A stretch of DNA of 13,543 bases from a virus (taxonomy: Duplodnaviria; Heunggongvirae; Uroviricota; Caudoviricetes). Below the pieces are notes generated by a model. It was not told where the DNA came from, made no database searches, and worked only from the letters and a program-made list of their open reading frames with translations. This document shows positions 1-13,543 of the stretch, one piece after another. Every line of letters starts with the position of its first letter. Position 1 is the first letter of the stretch. Position numbers and translations under genes: made by a program. The stretch lies in the IMG/VR virus record IMGVR_UViG_2698536485_000014; one strand, written 5' to 3'.

Positions 1-252
1 CACGAAAGGCACTCCCCCGAATCAGTTCAGGCTGCGGTCACATCAGCGGGGAAATACCTTTCGGGATAGCTACCCACACAGAAAACCCGCAAAAGAAAAC
101 TGTGTGGATAACTAGCCCAATAGGAGAATTAATCGACCACTCAACGATGATCAGGGTAGTGTTATTTATAAGGCGGCACCGCTACCTGGTCGCCTTTACT
201 TTGGAGGAAAATACGGCAAATCACTTTCACCATTGATTTACGGTATATGTAT

Positions 253-281
253 ATTATATCAGTATTCTCTCAAATTGTCAA
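253..281 (-). promoter_or_regulatory. Consensus sigma70-type promoter firing leftward
   Basis: Reverse complement of 253-281 reads TTGACA, a 17-nt spacer, then TATAAT: both hexamers perfect with optimal spacing. Downstream on the minus strand (1-245) there is no ORF in the window, so the target is an sRNA or a gene beyond the left edge. Confidence 0.4.
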
Positions 282-590
282 CACCCTTATTATATAAATT
301 CTAATAATTAGCGTGGTAACGGTATTTTCAGACCTCTATCAATCCCATCAATACGTCACCCCCACCCTTTAGATGCATACATCCGACCTACTTTGTAGGC
401 TTGGCGTACTGCCAAGGTCGCAGCTATGCGACTCATATCTATCACCACTTTATAAAGCTTGATAGATATCTTTTGATCAATATCAATGTTTTCCGGGGAT
501 TTACCCGGCTATAGTTCGAATCAAGGAAGGGGAGCATTGATAGCACCCCAACCGAACAAACAAATCAACTTCTCGCAAAAGGTGATAGTT

Positions 591-713
591 ATGGGTATCA
601 AGAACAGTGCCAGCGCATGGCAAAAGGCCAGGTTTCATCACCCACACATTATTAAGGCAATTGAGGTGGTTGGAGTGTTAGCCCTGATGTTAGCTCTGTG
701 TGTGGAGGTGTGA
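591..713 (+). CDS. Small hydrophobic peptide (40 aa), possible membrane peptide
   Basis: ATG at 591 lies in frame inside the 486..713 track ORF and is preceded by an AAGGTGA Shine-Dalgarno. The C-terminal half is hydrophobic (AIEVVGVLALMLALCVEV). A 15-nt box TCAACTTCTCGCAAA sits 11 nt upstream of the ATG, as at the 1133 gene. Short ORF, may be non-coding. Confidence 0.3.
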   Translation: MGIKNSASAWQKARFHHPHIIKAIEVVGVLALMLALCVEV

Positions 714-814
714 GATGGGCAAAGGAGGCAAAGCATTTTTAATAAGTCTGGCTATCCTGGATGTTCTACTAATCATGATTGAGCGGAGTTTATGAACAGC
801 ATTGAGAGGAGTTT

Positions 815-1075
815 ATGACGGGGGCTAAAGATATCAGGAGACTGAGGGAAGAGCTGATAGCTGAAATTAAAGCTAAGGCAAAGCAAATGGAGATAGCCGC
901 ACAAATGGATGTAGCGGAGCAGATGTACAAGATGGTTGAGGAGGGAACACCACGACAGGTTATCGCTAAAACCTTCGGTGTGGGGATCGCCACCGTGCAT
1001 AGAAGGCTGAAAGCCTATGCCGACTACCACAATATCGAGAGAAAGGAGGATGGGAGATTCAGGAAAGCTAAATGA
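815..1075 (+). CDS. Small DNA-binding protein with C-terminal helix-turn-helix (86 aa)
   Basis: AGGAG Shine-Dalgarno before ATG 815. Charged coiled-coil-like N-terminus followed by a motif (TPRQVIAKTFGVGIATVHRRLKAY) typical of resolvase/TerS/sigma-type HTH. An 8-codon uORF (792..818) overlaps the start codon via ATGA. Confidence 0.6.
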   Translation: MTGAKDIRRLREELIAEIKAKAKQMEIAAQMDVAEQMYKMVEEGTPRQVIAKTFGVGIATVHRRLKAYADYHNIERKEDGRFRKAK

Positions 1076-1132
1076 TGTAAACGGTCCAACAGGTTATTAA
1101 CTAAACTCAACTTCTCGCAAAGGGGTACCACT

Positions 1133-1720
1133 ATGAACATTAAAACTATCATTGCAGTCATCACTATTGCCTTTAGTGCCAACACCGCAGCTATTGATGT
1201 AGGGGCCGTAAAAGATGCATCTTGTGCTGATAAACTGGCGGCACTTAATGCGGGATTCGATGCACCCCAGGGCTATCAAATGGGGCTATCTCTTAAAAAT
1301 ATTATTCTCCCTATGGAATCTGGCGCTTATGTATACGGAGCGATAGGAAAACTGGAGAAGCCGGAAATTGACCTGCAGGGTGTGAGAGCGAAGATCACAA
1401 AAAGAAATGAAAGCCTTTGTGATGTAGCTGAAATAGCTTTCATATCAGACGATGAAAAATCTATTTTAGCCTTTTGCAAAGATAGCGATGATAATGATCG
1501 CTTCTTTAAGATCACCCACAACAGGCCAATCTCTTTCTACTCTAATGCCACTATGGGCGCGGGTATGCAGTGGCTGAAGAGAGCTAAAGTAACTGAGATC
1601 GACATTGAAAAAGAGGCCAATGCAGGCAGTTATGGATTCTGGAAAGGCTGGACTAAATACACGTTCCAACAATGCGGCATCGATAGTCAGGCCTACGACA
1701 ACGGATTTTGGTTTTTCTAA
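1133..1720 (+). CDS. Secreted/periplasmic protein of unknown function (195 aa), moron-like
   Basis: N-terminus MNIKTIIAVITIAFSANTAA has a classic Sec signal peptide shape (basic residue, hydrophobic core, small-residue cleavage region). Four cysteines in the mature part; aromatic C-terminus (FWFF). GGGG Shine-Dalgarno at 1122-1125; terminator 22 nt downstream. Confidence 0.7.
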   Translation: MNIKTIIAVITIAFSANTAAIDVGAVKDASCADKLAALNAGFDAPQGYQMGLSLKNIILPMESGAYVYGAIGKLEKPEIDLQGVRAKITKRNESLCDVAEIAFISDDEKSILAFCKDSDDNDRFFKITHNRPISFYSNATMGAGMQWLKRAKVTEIDIEKEANAGSYGFWKGWTKYTFQQCGIDSQAYDNGFWFF

Positions 1721-1741
1721 CCTGCTAAGTTAATCCCACCA

Positions 1742-1768
1742 GGGGGCCATCACGGCCCCTTTTTATTT
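1742..1768 (+). terminator. Rho-independent terminator after the 1133..1720 gene
   Basis: Stem GGGGCC (1743-1748), loop ATCAC, stem GGCCCC (1754-1759), followed by TTTTTATTT. Confidence 0.6.
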
Positions 1769-1842
1769 GCCTCTTTGAATTACCCCCTATTTACACTCCT
1801 TTCAGTCCTGATCATCACTCCCTACGGTCATGAGCAATTAAC

Positions 1843-1889
1843 CCCTATTTAAGGGGTATTTAATGGGTATTTAATGCCTATTTATTGAT
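1843..1889. repeat. Four tandem 11-bp AT-rich repeats
   Basis: TATTTAA/TATTTAAT/TATTTAAT/TATTTATT begin at 1846, 1857, 1868 and 1879, an exact 11-bp period. The first unit is embedded in the hairpin CCCCTATTTAAGGGG. Confidence 0.5.
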
Positions 1890-1965
1890 TTAATCCGTTT
1901 TATGCCACAACCGCCCGGTTGACAGAGTAAGAGAGAGGGTGTAACCCTTTTTCGTAACACCAATA

Positions 1966-1981
1966 AAATCAATAAGTTAGC
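1966..1981. repeat. 16-bp exact direct repeat, left copy (AAATCAATAAGTTAGC)
   Basis: Identical 16-mer at 1966-1981 and 9620-9635, with 17 of 18 identity when extended. Rough chance expectation for a 16-mer pair in 13.5 kb is about 0.02. Confidence 0.45.
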
Positions 1982-2356
1982 TTAATAAGCCTTTTCTCTA
2001 TTTTTGTCAAATTTAACATACCCTCAAAAACTGCAAAATCTGGCTGCAAGATTATCTGCAGCTGGATTTCTTACACCTCATTTTGTGGTATCACCCTGAC
2101 TAGTTTGTGCATAAAATGAACAGTTTTTAACATTTCCTCTTCACCTGGTAACCACACAAAAAGCTAAAAACGAGGCACAGATAATCTTAGAGGCCTGTTT
2201 TCTTGTTATCACTCTGGAAACGTCGTAGAAGTGATTTTGATGAAAGATGACCTACCCTATTACACCCCCATTTTTTGTTATCACAATTGCATCCTGTGCG
2301 GTATATGGCTGTGTGCTGAAAGCGGTCTTGGGTGTGGGTGTCAGAAATATCCATTA

Positions 2357-2372
2357 GCGGTATTAATACCCG
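2357..2372. promoter_or_regulatory. Isolated palindrome GGTATTAATACC, related to the CGGTA...TACCG family
   Basis: Perfect 12-bp palindrome at 2359-2370 inside GCGGTATTAATACCCG, with the same half-sites as the array at 3300-3490 but a 1-nt shorter centre. Confidence 0.3.
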
Positions 2373-3157
2373 TCAGATGTTCGTCTGAGGTGCCAGGCAG
2401 GCGCTCCCCCACCTCCCTTTTTTCTTCTAACAATTCTCAAATATCACACCACTGCCCACCACGTTGCTATTATGTTAATTCTTAAGCTTTGCTGTATGTT
2501 GTGCACATTATTTATTCAGGTGCATGTACGTAAATTCTGGGCCTCCTTATCATGATTTTTAAATCAGATTTTGTAGTTCGGTTTCTTAGTGTAGATAAGA
2601 TCTATTATGTTAAATGCAATTTTCCCAACCCTTCAAATCAATGACTTACATGTAAGCATGCACTAACACCCCACACAGCACATTAGACGTGTAGATGTCT
2701 ATATCCCACATTTTTGATTGTTTTGTAGTCATTCCCCTGATCATTTAACCAGTATAGTTTGCTCTCTGCAGACCACAAAATCGGAATTTACATCTGATTA
2801 ACATAATCTGTTAGCATGATCACCATTACCCACACAACAATAACCCCATGCAAGCCTCTTTAGGCAATTTATCGGCGTGTTGGTGTGAACAGTCTTTCAT
2901 GTTCTTTATGTATTCATGACTGCAAGGAATGTATTCATTGTCCTGTGTGAGGGAAGGCTGGACTGCTCCAGGGGCCATAGTTATGATGCCCGGTCAACAT
3001 AGCTGTTGATAAAATCAACGGGTGTTGGCCTGCATATTTCCCACACATGAGAGGAAATCAAAGCAAAGAGAGAGGAGAGAGGTTTGCTAGACGATCAGGA
3101 CTATACAGAGTCAAAATCAAGTCACATTAGAGTCAAATCAGATGCAATCAATCCCCC

Positions 3158-3218
3158 ACCTGTTGGGATTTCCCACATGTTCAACCATACACAGGAGCTA
3201 ACCTGTTGGGATTTCCTA
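3158..3218. repeat. Two 18-bp direct repeats (ACCTGTTGGGATTTCCCA / ...CCTA)
   Basis: 3158-3175 and 3201-3218 match at 17 of 18 positions, 43 bp apart. Confidence 0.5.
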
Positions 3219-3235
3219 CACCTCTTGCACATACC

Positions 3236-3490
3236 CCGGAAGATTTTTCCGGTGTCTCCAACCTGTGAAGAATTTTCACACCTGTAAATCCATACAGCAC
3301 GGTAAAAACTACCGCACAACCTGTCAAAATATTTTACTACTCCCTTTAGTCATACCCCTTTCAGTCATACTCAGGCACCACACCCCGGTAAATATTACCG
3401 TACTCAGGCAGATATAAAGGGGCTAACCACGGCAAATATTTCCCTACTACCTCGGTAAATATTTCCGGTGTACCCCGGTAAAAATTACCG
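3236..3490. promoter_or_regulatory. Phased array of 15-bp palindromic sites (iteron/operator-like)
   Basis: CGGTAAAAACTACCG (3300-3314), CGGTAAATATTACCG (3386-3400), degenerate CGGCAAATATTTCCC (3430-3444), CGGTAAATATTTCCGG (3453-3468), CGGTAAAAATTACCG (3476-3490). Related palindromes CCGGAAGATTTTTCCGG (3236-3252) and GTGAAGAATTTTCAC (3265-3279). Centre-to-centre spacings are 86, 44, 23.5 and 22.5 bp, roughly multiples of two helical turns. Confidence 0.55.
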
Positions 3491-3519
3491 CCTAATAGAT
3501 AAAGTAATAGACCACACAA

Positions 3520-4060
3520 TAGATCCCCCCCTAACCCCCAAGGGGAATGGGGAGGGATCAGAGAGTGGGGAAGGTTTTCTAAGGGAAAAGCTTAACCCAC
3601 AAATGAAAGCCTAAAGAGCATGAGCGACTCTTTAGGCAATCTGTGTGTGGGGGGGGTGACAATGTATTCCATACATGACACGTCACCCAATTGTGTGTGG
3701 GAGTGCCTACGGCACCTTAGCCCATGGCTAAGCCCTTCGGGTCTGTGTGGGTCCGGCGAATGCGTCAGCATGAGGCCCACAATGTGGACCGCTGCCGAAA
3801 GCTTGCCAGCGCCGGAAGGAGGCAGCAAAGAGTCTCCCGCGCTCATGTGTGGGCGTATACGTAAGATATACACTCATAAATCGAAAATAAGCCCCCTAAA
3901 TGGCCTTCTGGCTGCATTAACCTGTGTGAGTAGTGAATTGCATTACCTGATGCTTAAATCGCGTTAGAATCGATTTTAGAGCGCTTAAGGCAAAAAGTGC
4001 CCTCCCTTGTGGGCTTGCTTGTGTCTGCTGTGCAGGCTATGGCACCTATAGCACACCTAA
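3520..4060. other. GC-rich, hairpin-dense non-coding segment; candidate structured RNA or protein-binding array
   Basis: No credible ORF. Perfect 10-bp stem GCCTAAAGAG/CTCTTTAGGC (3609-3637); nested hairpin 3654-3688; GTGCC-TAC-GGCAC (3703-3715); CTTAGCC-CAT-GGCTAAG; a C(TTCG)G tetraloop; GAAA loops. Boxes TGTGTGGG at 3643, 3692, 3744 and 3846, with degenerate copies at 3923 and 4007. Confidence 0.3.
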
Positions 4061-4076
4061 ATGATAATAATTCTCA

Positions 4077-4105
4077 TTGACAATTGGTTGACAATATGAT
4101 AAGAT
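4077..4105 (+). promoter_or_regulatory. Possible sigma70 promoter for the small membrane ORF
   Basis: TTGACA (4077-4082), 17-nt spacer, TAAGAT (4100-4105). A second TTGACA at 4088-4093 lacks a good -10. Confidence 0.3.
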
Positions 4106-4140
4106 TATAAATAGGGGGAGAAACAGATCCGGAGGTCAAT

Positions 4141-4290
4141 GTGGAAATTACAGATGCAATAGCGATCATCAACCTGGCTGTACTGTGGTGCGGTGTTGCC
4201 TACATAGCCGGAGTAACTGCAATCGACAATCTTGAAGAAAAAATGATAGATAAATACAAAAAGATTGTTGACAATTTGACGAATGTCTGA
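4141..4290 (+). CDS. Small membrane protein (49 aa, GTG start), hypothetical
   Basis: GGAGG Shine-Dalgarno at 4131-4135, 5 nt before GTG 4141. The product VEITDAIAIINLAVLWCGVAYIAGVTAIDNLEEKMIDKYKKIVDNLTNV contains one predicted transmembrane helix. Not in the ORF track because it is under 60 aa. Confidence 0.3.
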   Translation: MEITDAIAIINLAVLWCGVAYIAGVTAIDNLEEKMIDKYKKIVDNLTNV

Positions 4291-4296
4291 TAAAAT
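4268..4296 (+). promoter_or_regulatory. sigma70-type promoter upstream of the plus-strand gene module
   Basis: TTGACA (4268-4273), 17-nt spacer, TAAAAT (4291-4296). Predicted start near 4303, about 120 nt before ATG 4423. Confidence 0.5.
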
Positions 4297-4422
4297 ATAA
4301 AGCATAGGGTAATTCTCATCATAGTGAATTTCCTTTAGTAGACTGGCGGGGGCTTGTCTTAAGTTCCCGTTTCTTTTTAACCATATATCGCACAGGTTAG
4401 TGAGCTGACAGGAGATTGAATC

Positions 4423-4638
4423 ATGGCTAAAACCGGACCGATAAGCCAGCTAGTAAACTGGACTACTGACGAAATCGTCGAGAACGTGCTTAAAGGTAAC
4501 TTTCGAAAAACTTCCGTTTATGCATTTATTCGTAAACACAAAGGAGAATATCCACACATTGAAGCGGCAATTTTAGAACTGAACCGTCTCCGCATCGAGC
4601 GTGAGCTGGCTAAATACACCAACAACATTAATAAATAA
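4423..4638 (+). CDS. Small basic protein (71 aa), possible regulator
   Basis: AGGAG Shine-Dalgarno 8 nt before ATG 4423. First gene of a compact co-directional cluster. No recognisable family by eye. Confidence 0.55.
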   Translation: MAKTGPISQLVNWTTDEIVENVLKGNFRKTSVYAFIRKHKGEYPHIEAAILELNRLRIERELAKYTNNINK

Positions 4639-4651
4639 TTATGGGGGAACT

Positions 4652-5518
4652 ATGGCAAACAACTATGGGGAAAATTTTACTCCCCTTTTTAAACGTTTCA
4701 TCAAATACATTTTTAAAAATCCGATTGCAAAAACTACAACCAATAAAGAAAGATTTCACTTAAATTTGTTGGAAATGGCAATTTACGGTGAAATGGCAAG
4801 TTTCCATTTAAACGGTAAAGAAATATTTATCTCTGAGCAAACCTTAGCAGATGATTATGATGCCACAGAAAAAACAGTAAGGTCGGCTATCAAAACATTA
4901 GAGGCTGCAGGACTAATATTTGTAAAACGGAGCAGAGGTAAGTCTAATCATTACAAACTACTTATTACTCCTGATCAGCTTGGCAAGATGTGTGATGAGC
5001 AGGGTATTAAAACCTCCGCAAGTGTGGGATACAGCAAAGAGGCCTCCGATAATCAACAGGAAGCCCCAAAACAAGCCACACAGCAGCCTGAAAAGCCCGA
5101 GGCAATGCAATCCCCTTCCCAACCTAAAAAAGAACGCAGAGAACGCCGTAGAGACGCTGGCAAACGTGAAATAGATGAGCACGGTTATCCGATTCTGACA
5201 AGCGATGAAATGAATGCTAGATATAAAGTAATTCAGGCCGCATTTAAAGATCAGAAGAGAATTAAATTATCTGAATTGCGTGATACATTTTACGGGCCGG
5301 AGGTGATGGATAAAATTAAAGGCACTATTCCCGATAAAATCTGGAAAGAGAAAGATTATTGGCACCTGACAGAGCAGGCCCTTAAGGTGGCTCAACATGT
5401 GGTTAAAAGAGGCAAAACAATTACCCTTGATTCTATTAGTCATGGCTATGATGCACCGAAAGAAAGATTGTGGAACAACTGCAAGCTTGTAAATGGTGAA
5501 TTGACAATTACAAAATAA
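4652..5518 (+). CDS. Winged-helix DNA-binding protein (289 aa), possible replication initiator or organiser
   Basis: GGGGGA Shine-Dalgarno before ATG 4652; the track ORF 4601..5518 begins at an upstream GTG with no Shine-Dalgarno. N-terminal wHTH-like segment (ISEQTLADDYDATEKTVRSAIKTLEAAGLIFVKRSRGK), a low-complexity Q/P/E/K-rich linker, then a C-terminal domain. Architecture resembles iteron-binding initiators such as lambda O; this is an inference. Confidence 0.6.
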   Translation: MANNYGENFTPLFKRFIKYIFKNPIAKTTTNKERFHLNLLEMAIYGEMASFHLNGKEIFISEQTLADDYDATEKTVRSAIKTLEAAGLIFVKRSRGKSNHYKLLITPDQLGKMCDEQGIKTSASVGYSKEASDNQQEAPKQATQQPEKPEAMQSPSQPKKERRERRRDAGKREIDEHGYPILTSDEMNARYKVIQAAFKDQKRIKLSELRDTFYGPEVMDKIKGTIPDKIWKEKDYWHLTEQALKVAQHVVKRGKTITLDSISHGYDAPKERLWNNCKLVNGELTITK

Positions 5519-5557
5519 ATATTCTTATTTTTTACAGTATTCTAAAGGAAATTTAAA

Positions 5558-5704
5558 ATGTATGGCGATTTTGATTATTACCTGGAAAAGGAAAAATATT
5601 TTGAAGATGAACTATCACAACATTTTTCATATTGGGAAGAATATTGTGGTTGGTTAGCTGAAGATCCAGCAGATGAAGAAAATGATTCTGACATCCCTTA
5701 TTAA
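5558..5704 (+). CDS. Small acidic protein (48 aa), hypothetical
   Basis: AAGGAA Shine-Dalgarno before ATG 5558. Product MYGDFDYYLEKEKYFEDELSQHFSYWEEYCGWLAEDPADEENDSDIPY is strongly acidic and aromatic. Below the ORF-track size cut-off. Confidence 0.35.
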   Translation: MYGDFDYYLEKEKYFEDELSQHFSYWEEYCGWLAEDPADEENDSDIPY

Positions 5705-5808
5705 TTAATATCCCCTGTTATCCCCAAATAAACTAAATAAACTAATTACATATAGAACTAGAACTAGATTGATTTCTCTTTAATGTTAAATTGACTGGAG
5801 AATTAATC

Positions 5809-6294
5809 ATGTTCAAATCTGATCTTTCTGATTCCCAATTTGAAAAACTGGTAGCACTGCAGAAATATCTCCCCAGTGATGATCAACCAACACGACAGGC
5901 TAAGCACTTATTAGTCGAGGGCTTTACCCCTGAATTCGTGGCGGAATACACAGGCGTTAAACTTGAGAAAGTCCAAAAACTATATAATGAGTCCTGGAAT
6001 CCACGGTGTAGAGTTCCCCTCAGTGTCTACAACGAAATAGATAGAGATAGAAATGTCTTCGAAGATCGCCGCCGCAAATCTCTTTTAATGTGGAATTGCG
6101 GGATGAATATTGAAGAGATAGCAAAAGAATTAAAAGTAACCTGCTTTCATATCTGGGGCTTGTTGAGTGAAATCCTGCCACGTAAGGAGCTTAATCAACG
6201 TTTGCCTAAGCCCGGTAGTCGTGCTTATCGCGAATTTATATTCATCTACCGCCGCCATAGCAATAAAGTCCGGAAAGCAATGCAGCGCAAATAG
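5809..6294 (+). CDS. Hypothetical protein (161 aa) with two HTH-like segments
   Basis: GGAG Shine-Dalgarno before ATG 5809; the track start 5791 is a TTG. Segments FTPEFVAEYTGVKLEKVQKLY and GMNIEEIAKELKVTCFHIWGLL look like helix-turn-helix motifs. Basic C-terminus. Confidence 0.55.
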   Translation: MFKSDLSDSQFEKLVALQKYLPSDDQPTRQAKHLLVEGFTPEFVAEYTGVKLEKVQKLYNESWNPRCRVPLSVYNEIDRDRNVFEDRRRKSLLMWNCGMNIEEIAKELKVTCFHIWGLLSEILPRKELNQRLPKPGSRAYREFIFIYRRHSNKVRKAMQRK

Positions 6295-6336
6295 CTTATA
6301 GCCTTCACATATGCCGCAAGTTATTGATTCTGCCGT

Positions 6337-6352
6337 CCGGTAAATATGCCGG
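6337..6352. promoter_or_regulatory. Extra copy of the palindromic operator (CCGGTAAATATGCCGG)
   Basis: Same CGGTAAATAT core as the array at 3300-3490, placed 31 nt upstream of ATG 6383 in the gap between two genes. Confidence 0.4.
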
Positions 6353-6382
6353 ATGGCTCATATAAATTTTAAGGAATTCCAA

Positions 6383-6826
6383 ATGTCTCAAATCGCTAAA
6401 TTACTATCCCAGGTTATCAAAGCTTTCGACGCTGAAGATTCAAAAGTTCGCCAGGATCTTTTAGATGGCAAGTTTACCAACACCCTGGCATTTACCCGTG
6501 ACAAAGAGCACTTCTTAAAACACAGACACCACGCTTTTGCTGAATGCAAGTCCGCTAATGGTGATGTTTTCTATGTCGATTTGGTGGTTATGGCATGTAG
6601 GCTGTGGATGATTCAGGACCTTATGCGCCAACACGGTGATGATCCTCTTATCAGCATGTGGAACAGCGCCCAGGATGGCTTTGTGATTGCTGCCTTATCC
6701 AAATCAATGATTGAGGCAGAAGGGGCAAGCCTTCAGAACATGGCAGATCTCTTTGAAATAAGCGTAGGAATGATGCAGACCATGCTCCAAGCTGTCAAAC
6801 CTCTCAAACTGGTTAATCTTGATTAA
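6383..6826 (+). CDS. Hypothetical protein (147 aa), predicted mainly helical
   Basis: AAGGA Shine-Dalgarno 7 nt before ATG 6383; the track start 6353 lacks a Shine-Dalgarno and overlaps the operator. Composition is rich in A, L, M, Q, K and E, unlike a beta-rich tail tube protein. Confidence 0.55.
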   Translation: MSQIAKLLSQVIKAFDAEDSKVRQDLLDGKFTNTLAFTRDKEHFLKHRHHAFAECKSANGDVFYVDLVVMACRLWMIQDLMRQHGDDPLISMWNSAQDGFVIAALSKSMIEAEGASLQNMADLFEISVGMMQTMLQAVKPLKLVNLD

Positions 6827-6885
6827 GCTATTGATAAATAAGCACTCCCCATTTTTGGGGGGTGCATCAATGAGAGGATATGCCT

Positions 6886-7269
6886 ATGAATATTGAAGAA
6901 ATGATAGTTGAATTCGAAGAGGGTGATTTCCTGGAAGATGGGGAGTTTAGTTACTCCCATTTTAAACAGGCGTTATTTAGCAGCGATGATAAACCACACG
7001 TTAGTGATCTTAACGACGATGATTTATGTCGTTGGGTGTGCACCCGCTTATATGAGGATGGAAAATATACAGGCCAAAACTTTCCAAATCTCTATTTCAA
7101 AGCACAAACATTTGAGGAAGGGCAAAGAGTGAAAAACCTGGTCGATCAAATGCTGTCAGCCGGATATTTGCATAAAGAATTATTAAATCCTAAAGCTGAA
7201 AGCAAGCGCCATTATATTTTTGTGTGGACTATTGGCGATAAGTGTCCACTAAGACGCAAAGGCAAATGA
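6886..7269 (+). CDS. Hypothetical acidic protein (127 aa)
   Basis: GAGAGGA Shine-Dalgarno 7 nt before ATG 6886. Acidic N-terminus. Second gene upstream of the tape-measure gene. Confidence 0.5.
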   Translation: MNIEEMIVEFEEGDFLEDGEFSYSHFKQALFSSDDKPHVSDLNDDDLCRWVCTRLYEDGKYTGQNFPNLYFKAQTFEEGQRVKNLVDQMLSAGYLHKELLNPKAESKRHYIFVWTIGDKCPLRRKGK

Positions 7270-7270
7270 T

Positions 7271-7507
7271 ATGAACACCTACGAAAAGATTTATCAAAAA
7301 CTGGTTAAGGACTCCGAAGAGACGCCCGAAGGGGTGACAATAGGTCACCTACCAGAGGCAGCGAAAGAGGGGTCCACCATTATTAAAAGTGGCACCCACA
7401 CAGAAGGCCTCTCAATCGAAGAGCTGGCGGAGAAATATAATATTGATAAAGAGGCCCTGAAAAGGGCTATTTCATTATCAAAATCTTTAAGACAGGGTGA
7501 GGTATAA
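7271..7507 (+). CDS. Hypothetical protein (78 aa)
   Basis: ATG 7271 lies 1 nt after the upstream TGA. The gene ends 1 nt before the tape-measure start, so the three genes are tightly packed. Confidence 0.5.
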   Translation: MNTYEKIYQKLVKDSEETPEGVTIGHLPEAAKEGSTIIKSGTHTEGLSIEELAEKYNIDKEALKRAISLSKSLRQGEV

Positions 7508-7508
7508 A

Positions 7509-9608
7509 ATGGCAATGAAGGAAGTAGCCAAACTAACAAACGTTATTTACTGGGATTCTGATAAATCCTCCTGGCGAAAAGAAGTTAAACGGCTTGAGGA
7601 TTATAAAAAATCCTGGAAGAAAGCTACCGACGATATAGCTAAAGCGGATTTTAAATCGAATCAGGCTGTGCTCAGAACACAAAGAACACGCGCTAAGGTG
7701 GAAGAGCAGATCGCCAGAGCACAGAAGAAACAACGTGCTCAGGCTGTCAGCCGTCTGACCGGGGGCAATAATCCGGAGCTCTCCTCTATGCGCAAGTTCT
7801 ATCAGCAGCAAGCCAGAGAGGCCGCCAGACAACAAAAACTGTTAGATCGTAGTGTTGGAGATGTTCAGCACAGAAAAGCACGTGTAGGGGCCAACAGTGC
7901 ACGAATCAGCAGCATGTTTGATGGCTCCCTGGTTGCTCAGTTCCAAAGCAGGATCCAGAGAGTTAATGCTGATTATGCTAAAGGGGCTATCAACCTGCAG
8001 GCCTATAATCAGAAAATGGCTCGGCTCAGGGCTGAAATGAAGATGGCAACAGCAGAGGCCGGAAAATTTCAGAGCAGACTGGATAAACTGGCATCAGGTG
8101 CCAGCAAGGTGCATGACAACCTGGGCAAAATCAACTCCACACTAGGCAAGATAGCCATTGGCCTTACTGCCGCTGGCTGGGGTGTTCAGCGTGCTGTTAG
8201 TGGTGCTATGGGTAGCCTTGCAGATCGCAACAGTGCCTACTTCGGTTTGATGGCACAGAACAAGGATGATAAAGCCAAGACTGATCAGCAGATGGCTTTT
8301 ATCAAGAACACAGCCTACACCTATGGGATGGATGAGCGGGAGATGCAAGGGGGCTACATGCGCTTTGCTGCAGCTACTCCCACCATGAAGGAATCTGATA
8401 AGCAGGCTCTTTTTGAGGCTATGGCTATTAAAGGTCGCTCAGTGGGTGCTACTGGCGAGCAACAGAACAGGGCGCTTGTTGCGGTCCAACAAATGGCTTC
8501 AAAGGGAAAAGTTATGGCGGAAGAGCTGCGGGGCCAACTGTCAGAAGCCTTTGCAGGCTCACAACAGGATTTTCAACAGGCCGCTATTGATGCCGGAATC
8601 ATCAAGAATACCCAGGAATTCGATAAAGCCCTTAAAGATGGCAAAATCACCCTGGATAAGCTACTCCCTTCTTTGGTGAAAATCTGGTCTGCAGCCAAGA
8701 ATACGAAAGCCTTTGCTGAATCCATGAAACAGCCAGAAGTAGCAATGCAGCGCATGAAAAACAGCTTTAACGAGCTGGCGATTCAGTTTATGGGTGTTGT
8801 GGATCCTGCGGATGGCGTTATTAGCTTATCTGAATCTCTGATCTCCATCTTTGAAGACCTCACCACTGATATGGACGGCAGCGGGAGCGCGGCAAAACAG
8901 TTCGGTGAGGCAGTCGGGGCTGCCATGCGTGAGATCATGTATTGGGTAGGCTTCGCTAAGGGATATATTGAGGTCAAGGCTAAAGAGTTCGGCATGACCG
9001 GATCAGAGGTTGGCGAGCTTATCGGAAAATTGGTAGTCGGCTTAGCTGGTCTGAAAGTTATTACTACACTGCTTTCCCCTCTAACCGGATTTGTTTCACT
9101 TGTCACCCAACTGATAGCTTTGTTAGGTAAAATCCCTGGTATGAGCAAGCTTCTGGCTTCTGCCTCAGGTGGAACGGCAACAGGAGCAGCGGTCATCAGT
9201 GCAGGCTCTAACGCTGAAAGAAGTTTCATTGATGGCAAGACGCAGGAAATGAGTAAGGAGAACTCAAAACAGGGTGCTTTGTTTGAGCTGGGAAGATTTG
9301 TTAGCAATGCTGGCGCACTGTTCACACCTGGCGGTGATACTGGTCCTTTGTTCGATCAGGTCAGAGGCTGGTTTAATAAAGGGCCAACATTGACAGTAGA
9401 CACTGGCATCAGACCTACACCAACAGGCGGCATAGCTATCCAGAATGGTGGATATCAACCAGTCCAAGTAAATGTAGCCCCACAAGGTGAGATTTCCGGC
9501 AAATGGGAGATAACCATTGATGAGGGTGGAATTGCCAGGGTGATCCAGAAGGAAGTCAGCGATCAGTTGGATTGGAAAGCCACACAGGAATCTAACCAGC
9601 TTTTCTAA
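7509..9608 (+). CDS. Tail tape-measure-domain protein (699 aa)
   Basis: GGTGAGG Shine-Dalgarno 6 nt before ATG 7509; the track start 7497 is a GTG. Coiled-coil, Q/R/K-rich N-terminus. Central segment ...QQMASKGKVMAEELRGQLSEAFAGS...KALKDGKITLDKLLPSL... matches my recollection of the conserved tape-measure domain motif. Hydrophobic segments (LIGKLVVGLAGLKVITTLLSPLTGFVSLVTQLIALLG) and a Gly-rich C-terminus are also typical. Confidence 0.6.
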   Translation: MAMKEVAKLTNVIYWDSDKSSWRKEVKRLEDYKKSWKKATDDIAKADFKSNQAVLRTQRTRAKVEEQIARAQKKQRAQAVSRLTGGNNPELSSMRKFYQQQAREAARQQKLLDRSVGDVQHRKARVGANSARISSMFDGSLVAQFQSRIQRVNADYAKGAINLQAYNQKMARLRAEMKMATAEAGKFQSRLDKLASGASKVHDNLGKINSTLGKIAIGLTAAGWGVQRAVSGAMGSLADRNSAYFGLMAQNKDDKAKTDQQMAFIKNTAYTYGMDEREMQGGYMRFAAATPTMKESDKQALFEAMAIKGRSVGATGEQQNRALVAVQQMASKGKVMAEELRGQLSEAFAGSQQDFQQAAIDAGIIKNTQEFDKALKDGKITLDKLLPSLVKIWSAAKNTKAFAESMKQPEVAMQRMKNSFNELAIQFMGVVDPADGVISLSESLISIFEDLTTDMDGSGSAAKQFGEAVGAAMREIMYWVGFAKGYIEVKAKEFGMTGSEVGELIGKLVVGLAGLKVITTLLSPLTGFVSLVTQLIALLGKIPGMSKLLASASGGTATGAAVISAGSNAERSFIDGKTQEMSKENSKQGALFELGRFVSNAGALFTPGGDTGPLFDQVRGWFNKGPTLTVDTGIRPTPTGGIAIQNGGYQPVQVNVAPQGEISGKWEITIDEGGIARVIQKEVSDQLDWKATQESNQLF

Positions 9609-9619
9609 TATTGTGATCT

Positions 9620-9635
9620 AAATCAATAAGTTAGC
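9620..9635. repeat. 16-bp exact direct repeat, right copy (AAATCAATAAGTTAGC)
   Basis: Identical to 1966-1981; lies 12 nt after the tape-measure stop codon. Confidence 0.45.
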
Positions 9636-9655
9636 CTGACCGGATAAACTCCAGG

Positions 9656-9690
9656 CAAGAAAAAAGCCCCTAAGTGTTAACAAAGGGGCT
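9656..9690 (-). terminator. Rho-independent terminator on the minus strand
   Basis: Stem AGCCCCT (9665-9671) pairs with AGGGGCT (9684-9690) around a 12-nt loop. On the minus strand the stem is followed by TTTTTCTTG. On the plus strand no T-run follows. Confidence 0.45.
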
Positions 9691-9719
9691 CTTCTCCGGT
9701 ATCCTTTTGATGCGGGGCG

Positions 9720-9767
9720 AACCTGCTAACAAAAATCAACCTCTCGCGAGACTAATGTTAGCAGGTT
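9720..9767. repeat. 12-bp perfect inverted repeat with 24-nt loop
   Basis: AACCTGCTAACA (9720-9731) pairs with TGTTAGCAGGTT (9756-9767). The loop contains the palindrome TCTCGCGAGA and a degenerate copy of the leader box (TCAACCTCTCGCGAG). Confidence 0.5.
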
Positions 9768-10108
9768 GCCGGAAGGTAAGTCAACTCCGGCCTATAAACC
9801 TTAAAGCGACTATAAAATCGCCCCGCCAATTGTGATGATCCGACCTTTGAGGCGGGTCCGGTGCCCAGGGGGTGCAGTGATGCACAAACCAGGCAACGAT
9901 AAACAGGCTAACAGTGATAGCGGCGCTCAATCAGCGCACTAAATCCTAACCAGTCCGGGAAAGAGGCTGGCTCTATCGACCGCTCATGCACGGGACAATG
10001 CATACCTGATAAAGGATTCTCACAAGGGACCAATCGCGAGAAAAGAAGTGGAAAGGGGCTGATTTGTGGTGTATCACTACGGCCTCAAAAGAACACTATT
10101 ACCTTTTT

Positions 10109-10567
10109 TCAGCCTCTCCCAACATTTGACCAGTATTTGATTGCACCGATCAAATCATCATAGTGGCGCATTGCATCATTGAAGCCTTTATAGCTTGCCC
10201 ATTGTGGGGAGACTTTGTTATTGCTGAATTGCCCACTAATCAGGATAGTCTCCAAAATGTCGGCGTATCGCTTGCCAATTCGCTTTCTGACGGCCTCAGA
10301 GCTTCCACCCTTTACGATTGCATTAATCAGGGCTTTTGTGTGTCTCAGGCTCTCATAGAGCATTGCAGCGTGGGCAGATTCCATAAAGGAGCGCTTAGGC
10401 AGATCACCCCACCCCTCAGAGTGGATAGCTGCCAGTGTGGCGTAATTCAGGCCGCTATAGTGCTTTCCGTCATCCCAGCCAACCGCTACACCTTCCATCT
10501 GTGAGAGCTCTTTATGCAGCTTATCCATCATGCGCTTGTCTATGGTGCAACGGACTTTCGGACTCAT
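10109..10567 (-). CDS. Hypothetical protein (152 aa), possibly virion morphogenesis-associated
   Basis: GGAG Shine-Dalgarno 8 nt before the minus-strand ATG at 10567. The start overlaps the upstream gene stop as ATGA (10564-10567). Function assigned by position only. Confidence 0.55.
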   Translation of the reverse strand: MSPKVRCTIDKRMMDKLHKELSQMEGVAVGWDDGKHYSGLNYATLAAIHSEGWGDLPKRSFMESAHAAMLYESLRHTKALINAIVKGGSSEAVRKRIGKRYADILETILISGQFSNNKVSPQWASYKGFNDAMRHYDDLIGAIKYWSNVGRG

Positions 10568-11367
10568 TTGTTGATCTCCGTGATGTCATCGAGCAACATG
10601 TTGGCCTTATCAATCATCGTTTCGTGGAACTCATTCGACACAACAGACTTATCACCTGCGGCAATCTTTCCCGCTGCCTCTCCCTGTGCATATTCCCCGC
10701 GATGCTTAGCCCTGGTTGATTTCGTAGCAGCATTGCCAGCGTTACTACCCTCTTTAGCACTGTTAACAGCACCCTTTTGCTGTGTTTTATTCACCTTCTT
10801 ACTGTTAGTGAAAACTCCGGCATTTTCGACCATCTTCACCTTGAAGGTGCGGAATTCTTCAAAAGTGCAATCAATAGTGATGCAGTCACCGGAGGAAGAG
10901 CTACGCTTAACTTCACATTTCGTCATGATGAAGTTCTCAAGAAGTCCGGCATCTTCACTCACCAGGCTAACCAGCTGGCGCTTGTCTCTCATTTCCATAA
11001 GAGCACGCACAGCGGCGGCGGGGCGCATGGATTCAAGGGGATTATCTGGATCAGTGTTCCGGTCGATGTAGTTCTCTTTCCGGATAATGTGAGGGGAAGA
11101 GGTAATAATGCCCGTAAAGCTGACAGATTTATCTTTAATGACGGCATGGTCTGACATGGTGGTGCCATCCTCGACCGCATAGCTCGATTTCTCAACAGGG
11201 AACGAATAGCTGACATCAGAGATAGAGTCAAAGAAGATAGCCACATTATCGGTATAGTTGAAGCCATCCATCATATTTTTGTTTTGTGAATATCCCCCAC
11301 ACATAACAGTGAATGCAGGAGATCTCGACTCAGCTTGTTTTGCAGCTGTCAGAGCATCACTAGCCAT
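10564..11367 (-). CDS. Hypothetical protein (about 268 aa), Ser/Thr/Val-rich with low-complexity C-terminus
   Basis: Preferred start is ATG at 11367, with GGAGG 10 nt upstream. The alternatives are ATG 11376 (too close to the Shine-Dalgarno) and the track TTG at 11421. The composition suggests a beta-rich structural protein; this is an inference. Confidence 0.55.
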   Translation of the reverse strand: MASDALTAAKQAESRSPAFTVMCGGYSQNKNMMDGFNYTDNVAIFFDSISDVSYSFPVEKSSYAVEDGTTMSDHAVIKDKSVSFTGIITSSPHIIRKENYIDRNTDPDNPLESMRPAAAVRALMEMRDKRQLVSLVSEDAGLLENFIMTKCEVKRSSSSGDCITIDCTFEEFRTFKVKMVENAGVFTNSKKVNKTQQKGAVNSAKEGSNAGNAATKSTRAKHRGEYAQGEAAGKIAAGDKSVVSNEFHETMIDKANMLLDDITEINK

Positions 11368-11561
11368 AGTAAACATGCCTCCAAATTGGTCCACTTCATG
11401 GATTTGGCTAAACTCGTGCAAATAGCCCTCGTCTTGAGGGTGTTAAAGCCAAACCTGCAAAAGATGCAGGCAAAATAGAACTTATCGTTGCCCTGCTTAA
11501 AATCTGCAGAAAATACAGGGCAGTTATTCGTTAGAATCGCTTATAGCTCTTCCCGAGAGCG

Positions 11562-11813
11562 TTATTTTGCAAAACGATTATGGGCATTCAGGGCTTTTTT
11601 GCGGTCCTGGGCTTGTTTGCGTGCAATAAAATGTTCGAAAGTCTCGGCCCAGGTGCATTTATTATATTCACGGTATTTATGCATAGCCTGGCGGCTAACG
11701 TCATAGCAGGCGGCAAATGTGGAGATACGCAGGAATTCCGGCAGATCCTCGTCATCGATATGGATAATATCAAAAGGCACGTCGTCACGGTCGCCGTATA
11801 AAACAATTTTCAT
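11562..11813 (-). CDS. Small acidic protein (83 aa) with possible HTH
   Basis: GAGGTG Shine-Dalgarno 8 nt before ATG 11813; the track start 11822 is a GTG. Contains the segment CYDVSRQAMHKYREY. Sits just downstream of the capsid terminator. Confidence 0.45.
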   Translation of the reverse strand: MKIVLYGDRDDVPFDIIHIDDEDLPEFLRISTFAACYDVSRQAMHKYREYNKCTWAETFEHFIARKQAQDRKKALNAHNRFAK

Positions 11814-11845
11814 AAAAGACACCTCAAAAAACTTAAGACGGGGAT

Positions 11846-11910
11846 AATAAAAAAGGGAAGAGGGAAAGACCTATCCCCGATCTCTCACCTCTTCCCTTTG
11901 CTTTTATTTG
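11846..11910 (-). terminator. Terminator/attenuator after the major capsid gene, possibly bidirectional
   Basis: Stem AAAGGGAAGAGG (11852-11863) pairs with CCTCTTCCCTTT (11888-11899) around a 24-nt loop. The minus-strand transcript is followed by TTTATTAT; the plus strand is followed by GCTTTTATTT. Confidence 0.5.
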
Positions 11911-11927
11911 GCCTTCGAAGAAGGACC

Positions 11928-12971
11928 TTATTTAGCCTTGGCTTTTGCCAGAGCGGCGGCGGAGTTACTAACACTCACTTTAATCACAACTTCAGGCATC
12001 ATGTTCATGAAAGCATAAGAGGATTCAATGAAGATTTCTCGTTTACCTCTGGACTCTTCCATATACATGAAAGCTTCACGTGCAGCGCCGTTTGCAAGCT
12101 TCAGGTTGCGAGCGCAAGGGCCGAAAAATTGAGTATAAACGCCCACCATATCGCCTAACGCATGCGGCTGGAACTGTGGGACCAGATAAGCAGTATTCTC
12201 TGGCAGACTATCCATTTGCACCACACGCAGAGCTAAGCCCGGAATGCGGAAGGTCGGGAAGCCCGGCAGAATATCCTCAGGGAACATCAGACCTTTGTCG
12301 GTAATATTCTGATTGCCGAACAACAGCACTTTTCTCAACAGTTCATCAGTCTGAATTGCAGCAAAGAGTTCAGCACGGCAGAACAGGGTGAAACCACGCA
12401 GAGCGCGAACAACACCACGCTGTTTAACCTTGCTCAGTGCAACCAGGTCCTGCAGCTGTTTAAGGATATCTTTAGCTAAATCCACTTCGGAAGTAGTTTG
12501 TTGTGCGCCCAGCAGTTCGCACACATTCAGTTCTTTACCCTTGGTGAGGATAATTTTGTTCTCAAAGAGAGCAAGCTGGCGTGCTTCTTCGTGGGTCTGG
12601 CGTAAGCCTTCGCCAAGCTGAATGACACGACGAGCGGTTACAGACTCTAAATTCTCTTCGGAATCTTTGCCCGGAACACGGATACCCTGCCAGTCAGAAG
12701 GATAAATAGCACTTGATGCGGCAGTGAATGCCATATCACCCGTGCCCGTTTCACGCTCATCTGCGGTAATGGTCGCCATCTGTTCACCGTAGCGCGGATA
12801 CTGACCGAAAGCGGTTTGTTTCACCTGGCGAACTTTGTCATATTCAAATTTAAAGGTATTGCACAGAGCAGTAGTGTTGAAGATATCCATTGCTGAAATA
12901 ATCTGGTTATCCAGCGGGATGTCTTTAATCAGACCACACAGATCGCGAACTTCGAATTCTTTCTTAGCCAT
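11928..12971 (-). CDS. Major capsid protein, lambda gpE-like family (about 347 aa)
   Basis: AAGGAGG Shine-Dalgarno 6 nt before ATG 12971; the track start 12977 is a TTG. Size matches gpE-type capsid proteins. N-terminal FKFEYD and C-terminal PEVVIKVSV segments resemble lambda E as I recall it. It follows a decoration-size gene by 11 nt and is followed by a strong terminator. Confidence 0.6.
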   Translation of the reverse strand: MAKKEFEVRDLCGLIKDIPLDNQIISAMDIFNTTALCNTFKFEYDKVRQVKQTAFGQYPRYGEQMATITADERETGTGDMAFTAASSAIYPSDWQGIRVPGKDSEENLESVTARRVIQLGEGLRQTHEEARQLALFENKIILTKGKELNVCELLGAQQTTSEVDLAKDILKQLQDLVALSKVKQRGVVRALRGFTLFCRAELFAAIQTDELLRKVLLFGNQNITDKGLMFPEDILPGFPTFRIPGLALRVVQMDSLPENTAYLVPQFQPHALGDMVGVYTQFFGPCARNLKLANGAAREAFMYMEESRGKREIFIESSYAFMNMMPEVVIKVSVSNSAAALAKAKAK

Positions 12972-12982
12972 CTTCAACCTCC

Positions 12983-13318
12983 TTATTGTGCAACACGCAA
13001 ATCGCCATTGCTGGCAGCGATAACAGCGGCTAAGCCGTCTTTATCCACGTAGGCCGGATTGATATAACAGCCTTTGTTGGCAACAACGATAAAAGCGTCA
13101 CCAACCTCAGCACGTTCTACAACCAGCAGCGGAGTTTTACCGGTGTGTGTTTCTTTAACGAAGGTCTCAACCTCGCCAGCCTCAGTCACCACAACAACAG
13201 TGCCAGCCGGAATCTCAGCTTTAACTTTGTTTTTAATTTCAACGTCGCGAATACTAAATTGCTCATCTGCGGCGTATGAAATGATGTGTCCGCGTGTGCG
13301 GATAGTCATATCTTTCAT
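12983..13318 (-). CDS. Head decoration-like protein (111 aa)
   Basis: AGGTGA Shine-Dalgarno before ATG 13318. Small Val/Ala/Glu-rich product directly upstream of the capsid gene, in the gpD-gpE arrangement. Its stop codon overlaps the capsid Shine-Dalgarno. Call is by position and size only. Confidence 0.45.
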   Translation of the reverse strand: MKDMTIRTRGHIISYAADEQFSIRDVEIKNKVKAEIPAGTVVVVTEAGEVETFVKETHTGKTPLLVVERAEVGDAFIVVANKGCYINPAYVDKDGLAAVIAASNGDLRVAQ

Positions 13319-13356
13319 TTGATCACCTGCGATTTAAATTAACTCCCCTCAAAGAG

Positions 13357-13473
13357 TTCCGGCATAACCTCTAAAACCACGACAGGATCGGGCCGAAAAG
13401 TTATGCCGGAAATCTAAAGGGAAATTGATACAAGGAGAGGGAGATAGCCCCGCACCGTCCAAGCGGGGGCTAT
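13357..13473. repeat. Two strong hairpins in the leader upstream of the decoration gene
   Basis: 12-bp perfect inverted repeat TTCCGGCATAAC (13357-13368) / GTTATGCCGGAA (13400-13411) with a 31-nt loop. Second hairpin ATAGCCCCGC (13444-13453) / GCGGGGGCTAT (13463-13473) with one bulged base. Confidence 0.4.
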
Positions 13474-13543
13474 TCCACATGGGGAAACCGACAACAGTCG
13501 GATGATAGTTCACAGTATTACGGTTACTAGAGAGCACTATCAC

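Follow-up and report, generated by a model that had tools for sequence, protein, structure and literature searches.

Evidence for a 49-codon membrane protein gene in the replication control region of an E. coli/Shigella plasmid family with phage-particle genes

Between the iteron-bearing origin and the replication genes of the DNA analysed here (the window, that is, the whole stretch of 13,543 bases) lies a short plus-strand frame that raises two questions, namely whether it encodes a protein and what such a protein might do for the element that carries it. The window was found to be a member of a family of circular, 'non-mobilizable' E. coli/Shigella plasmids of about 13-14 kb (13.2-13.7 kb) present on hundreds of assemblies; matches to it of 88-97% identity comprised seven RefSeq and six PLSDB plasmids, and no chromosomes. 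Its gene content includes an HTH protein (815-1075) and, listed with it, a 195-aa protein; a 2.3-kb stretch without credible ORFs (about 1720-4077) inside which six 19-nt iterons are found (3233-3490); a replication module harboring the gene of a 71-aa protein and that of an O-like/HTH_36 replication initiator (4652-5518); a tape measure protein (7497-9608; phrog_5255, 2e-168); several unknown genes; and minus-strand genes for a neck/tail-completion protein, a Dit-like tail protein and a capsid-like protein of HK97 type. This context, that of an uncharacterised plasmid family endowed with particle genes and a long ORF-free region, adds to the value of the locus. The homologues of the capsid-like protein were all at least 82% identical, leaving no distant relatives in which positional conservation might be tested.

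The reading frame and its conservation among relatives

The frame runs on the plus strand from a GTG start at 4141 to a TGA stop at 4288-4290 (4141..4290) and encodes, in 49 codons, MEITDAIAIINLAVLWCGVAYIAGVTAIDNLEEKMIDKYKKIVDNLTNV. It was compared across 15 loci consisting of the window and 14 others, ten of them from annotated plasmids or assemblies and four from metagenomes, the latter retrieved by means of an exact DNA pattern. The frame was intact and exactly 49 codons long in 15/15 loci, and all 21 distinct alleles from the protein collection (21/21) likewise had 49 residues. The start was kept throughout, as ATG in L009 and L014 and as GTG in the other loci. Variable sites in the ORF (n = 37) were distributed over the third, first and second codon positions as 22/8/7, the excess at third positions being significant in a binomial test computed on an earlier count of 22/36 (p=6e-4). 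Nei-Gojobori dN/dS values were between 0.10 and 0.19 in all pairs that differed at six sites or more (pS up to 0.47), pointing to purifying selection on the protein. The exact protein was found on 784 contigs versus 942 for a neighbouring core gene. We consider it very probable, on the strength of these alignments, that the 49-codon frame is a real and selectively maintained gene. It is not, as the first-pass annotation had it, an unannotated one, since all RefSeq/GenBank relatives examined carry it as a 'hypothetical protein', including L001, where the ORF DNA is identical to that of the window and the PGAP call is WP_157794903.1. The small gene is real, then, but ordinary in kind.

That there would be no gene at all, the open frame being a by-product of regulatory conservation at the DNA level or the minus-strand ORF being the real gene, appears highly improbable. 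The block is admittedly well conserved as DNA, with a 42-nt segment (4234-4275) frozen even at synonymous sites, and an unrelated ORF in L010 enters the same frame and the same stop codon. Third positions, however, are variable at 1/14 sites in this segment versus 19/30 upstream of it (Fisher p=8e-4), amino-acid changes outside the frozen segment are few, and the start codon has been swapped for another start codon. The alternative frames, finally, are either full of stops, as are the other two plus-strand frames, or broken in relatives. The latter is the case of the 66-aa minus-strand ORF (4105..4305) whose being the real gene had been put forward as what would overturn the proposal: it is interrupted by an internal stop in L006, has lost its start in L009 and L012, and has first codon positions that fall on the sites varying as third positions in the plus frame.

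Promoters, leader and terminator

Upstream of the gene, a predicted promoter on the plus strand (P1, 4077..4105) is made of TTGACA (4077-4082), a 17-nt spacer and TAAGAT (4100-4105), with the TG of an extended -10. It is preceded on the same strand by a conserved AT-rich, UP-element-like block (4046..4076) in which CTATAG..CCTAAATGATAATAATTCTCA is conserved in alignments, and with which the conserved control block starts on its left side; upstream of about 4045, the relatives are unalignable and divergence is complete. A GGAGG Shine-Dalgarno sequence (4131..4135, plus strand) lies 5 nt before the start codon. The promoter hexamers and their spacing, the Shine-Dalgarno, the GTG start and the 49-aa frame were all recovered as first described. 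The upstream 100 nt were compared by gapped alignment owing to 1-nt indels among relatives. The P1 -35 (ATTGACA), the extended -10 (ATGATAAGAT) and GGAGGTCAA proved invariant in 15/15 loci while six positions of the spacer and the 5'-UTR varied, 1-nt indels included, and the distance from the Shine-Dalgarno to the start was kept. With hexamers set at 17 +/- 1 bp and more conserved than the spacer between them, predicted P1 conforms to a sigma-70 promoter, and the earlier proposal of a gene equipped with its own promoter and Shine-Dalgarno is borne out by signals that held as the spacer drifted.

In a consensus scan of the 13.5-kb window, the promoter of the downstream module (P2, described below; 11/12) and P1 (10/12), both with TG, ranked second and third behind a perfect 12/12 site on the minus strand (281-253) heading the capsid-side operon. 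The total number of promoter-like sites in the window did not exceed that in shuffles, so that the scan alone is weak evidence. P1, P2 and the minus-strand promoter at 281-253 share GTTGACAAT and TGATA-AAT, and TTGACAAT boxes are common to P1, P2 and the capsid-operon promoter, a second copy being located inside the P1 spacer (4088-4095). These boxes could be the sites of a common repressor, and the protein would then be made early, upon induction. Another sequence, TAAATAGGGG, was considered as an operator at the +1 of P1 and treated as coincidental given that the P1 copy is lost in L007, L009 and L012; it also occurs twice near 1784-1851, and all relatives retain these two upstream copies. 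The leader of the P1 transcript, 28-30 nt in length, did not differ from shuffles in mRNA structure (z = -1.45). Because P1 is strong and without an operator found, and because the Shine-Dalgarno is of consensus type, the protein is probably made continuously during plasmid residence, constitutive expression being here deduced from sequence only.

The promoter of the downstream 71-aa/Rep module, P2 (4268..4296, plus strand), consists of TTGACA (4268-4273), 17 nt and TAAAAT (4291-4296), again with TG, and closely resembles the 12/12 minus-strand promoter. It begins inside the last eight codons of the small gene, in agreement with the earlier placement of a downstream-module promoter within its 3' end. 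The -35 of P2 is invariant, and the 12 nt past it (spacer, codons 46-49) are again highly variable, with eight variable positions within 4274-4287. It is their overlap with the upstream region and -35 of P2 that accounts for codons 32-45 being frozen at synonymous sites. This part of the gene also contains an inverted repeat, TCGACAATCTT / AAGATTGTTGA, whose arms (4223-4233 and 4261-4271) flank a 27-nt A-rich tract; the repeat as a whole (4223..4271) is a candidate operator or UP region of P2 lying inside coding sequence. In L010, a 38-kb contig, homology to the window begins abruptly at ~4214, just left of the inverted repeat, and spans P2, the leader and the replication genes, an unrelated 82-aa ORF running into the shared sequence. 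As L010 keeps P2 and the replication genes in the absence of P1 and of the membrane segment, P2 and the replication module can exist alone. The final third of the gene doubles as the upstream control region of P2, a DNA-level role that L010 supports, and the gene provides a clean case of DNA coding at once for a protein tail and for the upstream region of a promoter.

An intrinsic terminator or attenuator (4345..4378, plus strand) consisting of a 12-bp stem and TTTCTTTTT lies between the small gene and the 71-aa gene. The hairpin and its T-run are present in every relative, with a wholly different stem in L009 (GCUGGG/CCCAGC) and altered stem bases in L012. Owing to its position after the small gene, P1 transcripts can end as a monocistronic message of ~270 nt, and the predicted arrangement is such that expression of the replication genes from either P1 or P2 requires read-through of the terminator. 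From 4081 to 4320, identity amounted to 78-100% per 60-nt window, even where the iterons and Rep genes of the relatives were unalignable; in L009, it drops to 53% in 4321-4380. On the whole, nowhere in the otherwise mosaic ori-rep region is conservation higher than at positions 4046-4420. As judged from these comparisons, the P1-ORF-P2 block stays constant as a core while the origin and initiator cassettes on its two sides are exchanged, and the small gene is among the few never-varying parts of the replication control region.

The predicted protein and the search for homologues

The 49 residues contain one hydrophobic segment, with a Kyte-Doolittle maximum over 19 residues of 2.18 (residues 7-25), from which a transmembrane helix was predicted at codons 6-28 (4156..4224, plus strand; AIAIINLAVLWCGVAYIAGVTAI). 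Residues N11, C17, G18, Y21 and G24 are invariant among the 21 alleles, and substitutions in the transmembrane segment are conservative (V/I, L/M, A/V, T/A) with the exception of W16C in one allele. Codons 29-49 (4225..4287, plus strand) are predicted to form an amphipathic, charged C-terminal helix with a hydrophobic moment of 1.7, compared to 0.68 +/- 0.34 in shuffles (p about 0.0075). The five N-terminal residues carry a charge of -2 and neither Lys nor Arg, all four Lys residues of the protein being located in its C-terminal 21 residues, and by the positive-inside rule we infer an N-out/C-in topology with a cytoplasmic C-terminal helix. An AlphaFold (AF2) model returned a single continuous helix spanning residues 2-48 (mean pLDDT 81.6). 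The description of the product as a 49-aa single-transmembrane protein is consistent with both the hydropathy profile and this one-helix model; by the same token, a model reduced to a single helix makes fold comparison uninformative.

Homologues were found nowhere outside the narrow E. coli/Shigella plasmid family. Among the 1.84 billion representatives covered by an exhaustive profile search there were four hits, one to the family, one to the L010 chimera and two to giant, repetitive proteins, and a word-indexed search returned family members and one chimera only. Neither Pfam, PHROG, NCBIfam, PADLOC and PDB sequences nor a BFVD fold search provided a usable match, Pfam giving only noise at E<=10; protein patterns run against viral and representative-genome collections, and an exact-DNA scan of viral contigs, gave nothing. 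The small gene is as such one more well-supported orphan among the sub-50-residue membrane proteins of mobile elements, a finding of modest weight, and its product gives genetic work on the plasmid family an inexpensive and specific starting point.

Possible roles of the protein

The first-pass annotation had noted that small membrane proteins in such positions are often superinfection-exclusion factors, holin-like proteins or toxin-like peptides. The full explanation that we favor, and hold tentatively as falling somewhat short of probable, is that of a P1-driven bitopic inner-membrane protein encoded by a moron-like unit and acting as a non-lethal, entry-blocking factor. In this scheme, P1, a strong sigma-70 promoter, would transcribe the gene with a short leader and a consensus Shine-Dalgarno, and the transcript would cross P2 and stop, at least in part, at the intrinsic terminator ahead of the replication genes. 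The product would be inserted in the inner membrane with its short acidic N-terminus outside, its helix at residues 6-28 and a 21-residue lysine-rich cytoplasmic helix. The invariant Asn11 and Cys17 and the small-residue motifs of the helix suggest a helix-helix association of the protein with itself or with a membrane protein of the host or of an incoming element. The gene would behave as a moron-like unit heading the replication control region; its final third serves both coding and P2. It is not a moron in the sense of Juhala and Hendrix (a recognisable insertion relative to related genomes, often of deviant GC): the unit is present in 15/15 loci of the family, and GC is ~0.37-0.44 in the 300-nt windows overlapping it, as read off the profile with no formal comparison of the neighbours. 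The membrane factor would finally benefit the resident element, most plausibly by barring DNA entry from related incoming particles. Taken separately, a role in exclusion or at the host envelope seems to us possible but doubtful.

The model for such a factor is the moron gp15 of HK97, and the protein would, like it, insert in the inner membrane and act against an incoming tail. Small and located in the inner membrane, gp15 is produced from a promoter-plus-terminator unit while the phage is carried, and it stops genome injection in a tail-dependent manner (PMC3594210). The small protein resembles it in its size and (here predicted) inner-membrane location, in its promoter-to-terminator unit, and in its being encoded by an element that also encodes a tape measure; both proteins are expected to be made during carriage of the element. 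Unlike gp15, it has no YebO or other Pfam hit, and its unit is the core of a replication control region rather than an insertion in a tail operon. Since no hit was obtained to the YebO family, to which gp15 belongs, the idea of exclusion rests only on an analogy of size, location and expression. Superinfection exclusion is compatible with the anatomy of the gene, and exclusion aimed at related incoming particles is a guess, made coherent by the tape measure and Dit-like proteins that the plasmid itself specifies. Other small proteins offer a further comparison: AcrZ, MgrB and SgrT, of ~30-50 aa, have one transmembrane helix and bind a larger membrane protein. The product of the small gene is similar to them in size and in its single helix; it differs from them in that they are chromosomal and condition-regulated, and no sequence similarity to them was found.

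Rather unlikely, in our opinion, is a membrane-damaging or growth-arresting peptide, that is, a new type I-like toxin involved in post-segregational killing or a 'kil'-type early product. Type I toxins are under 60-70 aa in length and have a transmembrane region and a polar C-terminus, a description that fits the small size, single transmembrane helix and charged polar tail of the protein (PMC2887945). Like Hok/Gef, Ldr/Fst, TisB and DinQ, it is a plasmid-borne protein of <60 aa with one such helix and a charged tail (PMC2887945). Family searches of the plasmid recognised no toxin-antitoxin or partition module; the invariant transmembrane Asn would favor oligomerisation; the TTGACAAT boxes shared by P1, P2 and the capsid-operon promoter permit co-repression; and a weak antisense promoter-like site, TCAACA-17-TATCAT (4271->4243, 9/12), occurs inside the synonymously frozen block. 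This site, on the other hand, overlaps the -35 of P2 and can be accounted for entirely by the P2 upstream region, and the putative antisense transcript has neither a structure signal (z = 0.08) nor a nearby terminator. No complement of at least 13/14 to the translation-initiation region was found anywhere on the plasmid. The mRNAs of known type I toxins have long, folded leaders in which translation is blocked, and the strong promoter, 28-30-nt leader and exposed Shine-Dalgarno of the small gene are the opposite of these. The gene differs from the toxins cited above in lacking homology, a convincing antisense RNA and a folded, inert leader; it matched neither Hok, Ldr, Fst, TisB and Ibs nor other toxin families (Pfam, E<=10), NCBIfam and PADLOC were without a hit, tandem duplication of the ORF was not seen, and the allele is unchanged on its 784 contigs. 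The earlier suggestion of a toxin-like peptide is thus not sustained, its defining antisense partner not having been found and the expression signals being wrong for type I. The suggestion of a holin-like role fared no better, and we judge a holin or other lysis protein to be scarcely credible. Some holins are small, with one transmembrane helix and a charged C-terminus, and the element does have particle genes (capsid-like, neck, Dit-like and tape measure). The plasmid, however, carries no endolysin or spanin, the protein matches no holin family in PHROG or Pfam, and the gene is served by a sigma-70 promoter in a replication control region rather than by a late or lysis cassette. A weak 'endolysin' PHROG hit was to the Dit-like tail protein (284 aa, 'baseplate' in PGAP).

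The main role of the locus might alternatively be exerted in cis: the replication operon would be tuned by transcription from P1, and perhaps by ribosomes translating the ORF as far as 4290, with the peptide as a secondary product, a possibility to which we give little credence. Transcription from P1 could run across or occlude P2 and feed transcripts into the attenuator at 4345-4378. The layout lends itself to such control, with tandem promoters 191 bp apart, P2 within the ORF, a conserved terminator separating the ORF from the first gene of the replication module, and the whole located in the best-conserved stretch (4046-4420) of the mosaic ori-rep region. Complements of the post-terminator leader also recur in the upstream ORF-free region, making this leader a regulatory hub. 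Nevertheless, dN/dS values of 0.1-0.2, third positions accounting for 22/37 changes, conservative transmembrane substitutions and GTG<->ATG exchange are unexpected for a pure cis element; the replication module of L010 has P2 without either P1 or the N-terminus of the ORF; and no anti-terminator pairing was evident in the folds examined, which do not amount to a systematic search. The stop codon, moreover, lies 55 nt ahead of the terminator stem, outside the footprint of a ribosome. For this reason, and because the peptide is under purifying selection, a leader peptide or attenuation uORF was rejected. In the early leader of P4, the translation of nested genes (kil/eta) controls Rho-dependent termination. 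The small gene is reminiscent of kil/eta in that a short ORF opens an early or replication operon and has termination signals after it; its terminator is, in contrast, intrinsic and set well past the stop, and the sequence of its peptide is under selection.

Returning to the entry-blocking factor that we favor, its most specific form would make the protein the entry-exclusion or immunity factor of the resident element itself, blocking particles equipped with the tape measure and Dit tail-tip proteins of the family. This form is one that we think unlikely. If it is true, the plasmid-borne, phage-satellite-like element would possess an exclusion system specific to its family and not recognised before, and one whose gene, being wired into the replication promoter, is not losable without disturbing replication control. 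Against exclusion, barring helper-assisted particles could be costly to a satellite-like element. A search of the literature on the plasmid family or on an rV5-associated satellite returned nothing relevant; rV5-like phages share a short stretch with the plasmid family.

Gene content and distribution of the plasmid family

The window as a whole (1-13543) looks like a plasmid-borne, phage-satellite-like element. It combines an iteron origin with an O-like Rep and encodes a tape measure protein (7497-9608); the minus strand carries the genes for a capsid-like protein (11928-12977), a Dit-like protein (10564-11421) and a neck/tail-completion protein (10109-10567). No gene in the window was recognised as encoding a terminase, a portal, a sheath/tube protein or a lysis function. 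The plasmid family is restricted to E. coli/Shigella, its proteins being at least 82% identical and its core proteins present on hundreds of contigs. A search of the literature for this family retrieved no paper describing it.

A 62-nt stretch of the window (3781-3842) displayed 85-87% identity to an unannotated intergenic region of ~660 nt in rV5-like (Vequintavirus) phages and was matched by 119 phage records. Inside this stretch lies a hairpin in which, as read by eye from the alignment, a G.U pair in the plasmid is swapped for U.G in the phages. These similarities hint at a structured RNA or recognition site common to plasmid and phages, as well as at a possible helper phage.

Transfer of the replication cassette and exchange within the ORF-free region

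In the related locus L010 (a 38-kb Logan contig, ERR13318355_18094), positions 6001-6249 encode a chimeric ORF of 82 amino acids whose last 25-28 residues correspond to the C-terminus of the small membrane protein, the junction falling ~54 nt upstream of the -35 element of P2, the promoter of the replication module. After this chimeric ORF come P2, then the leader, then a related replication module, an arrangement showing that the P2-rep cassette has been transferred into a different, larger element.

Upstream of the small gene, positions 1720-4077 form a region of ~2.3 kb without a credible ORF that is likewise unannotated in all relatives. Neither a tRNA nor an Rfam match at the gathering threshold was detected in this region, whose sequence includes six 19-nt iterons (ACCCCGGTAAATATTACCG) at 3233-3490 along with GC-rich, hairpin-rich stretches at 3600-4050. 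Parts of it, including the iterons, have been exchanged between relatives along with the Rep gene.

Candidate regulatory sites

Complements of the replication-operon leader that lies directly past the terminator (4380-4402, CCATATATCGCACAGGTTAGTGA) recur on the same strand of the ORF-free region, at 2292-2307, 2936-2951 and 3915-3930, that at ~2292-2307 (CCTGTGCGGTATATGG) being found in 9 of the 11 loci examined. Such complements could mediate control of the leader by a trans-acting RNA comparable to P4 CI or P1 c4; alternatively, they could be repeated protein-binding sites.

At the head of the capsid-side operon is a promoter that matches the consensus perfectly, TTGACA-17-TATAAT plus TG (253-281, minus strand), and that strongly resembles P2 (GTTGACAATTTGA...CTGATA-AATATA). 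The box TTGACAAT occurs five times in the window versus 0.8 expected, each time at a promoter-like site, and it is possible that one regulator is common to these sites.

Two copies of AATTA(A/C)CCCCTATTTA lie at 1778-1851, directly past the terminator that follows the HTH and 195-aa genes. At least two CCCCTATTTA copies were present in all nine loci examined (the window and eight relatives), spaced 11, 22 or 58 nt apart, and may represent a centromere-like or regulator-binding array. Finally, TAATTCTCAT forms an exact 10-nt direct repeat, one copy (4068-4077) adjoining the -35 element of P1, the promoter of the small gene, and the other (4310-4319) lying directly downstream of the predicted P2 start. 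Among related loci, the first copy is altered in L007, L009 and L014, and the second in L009.
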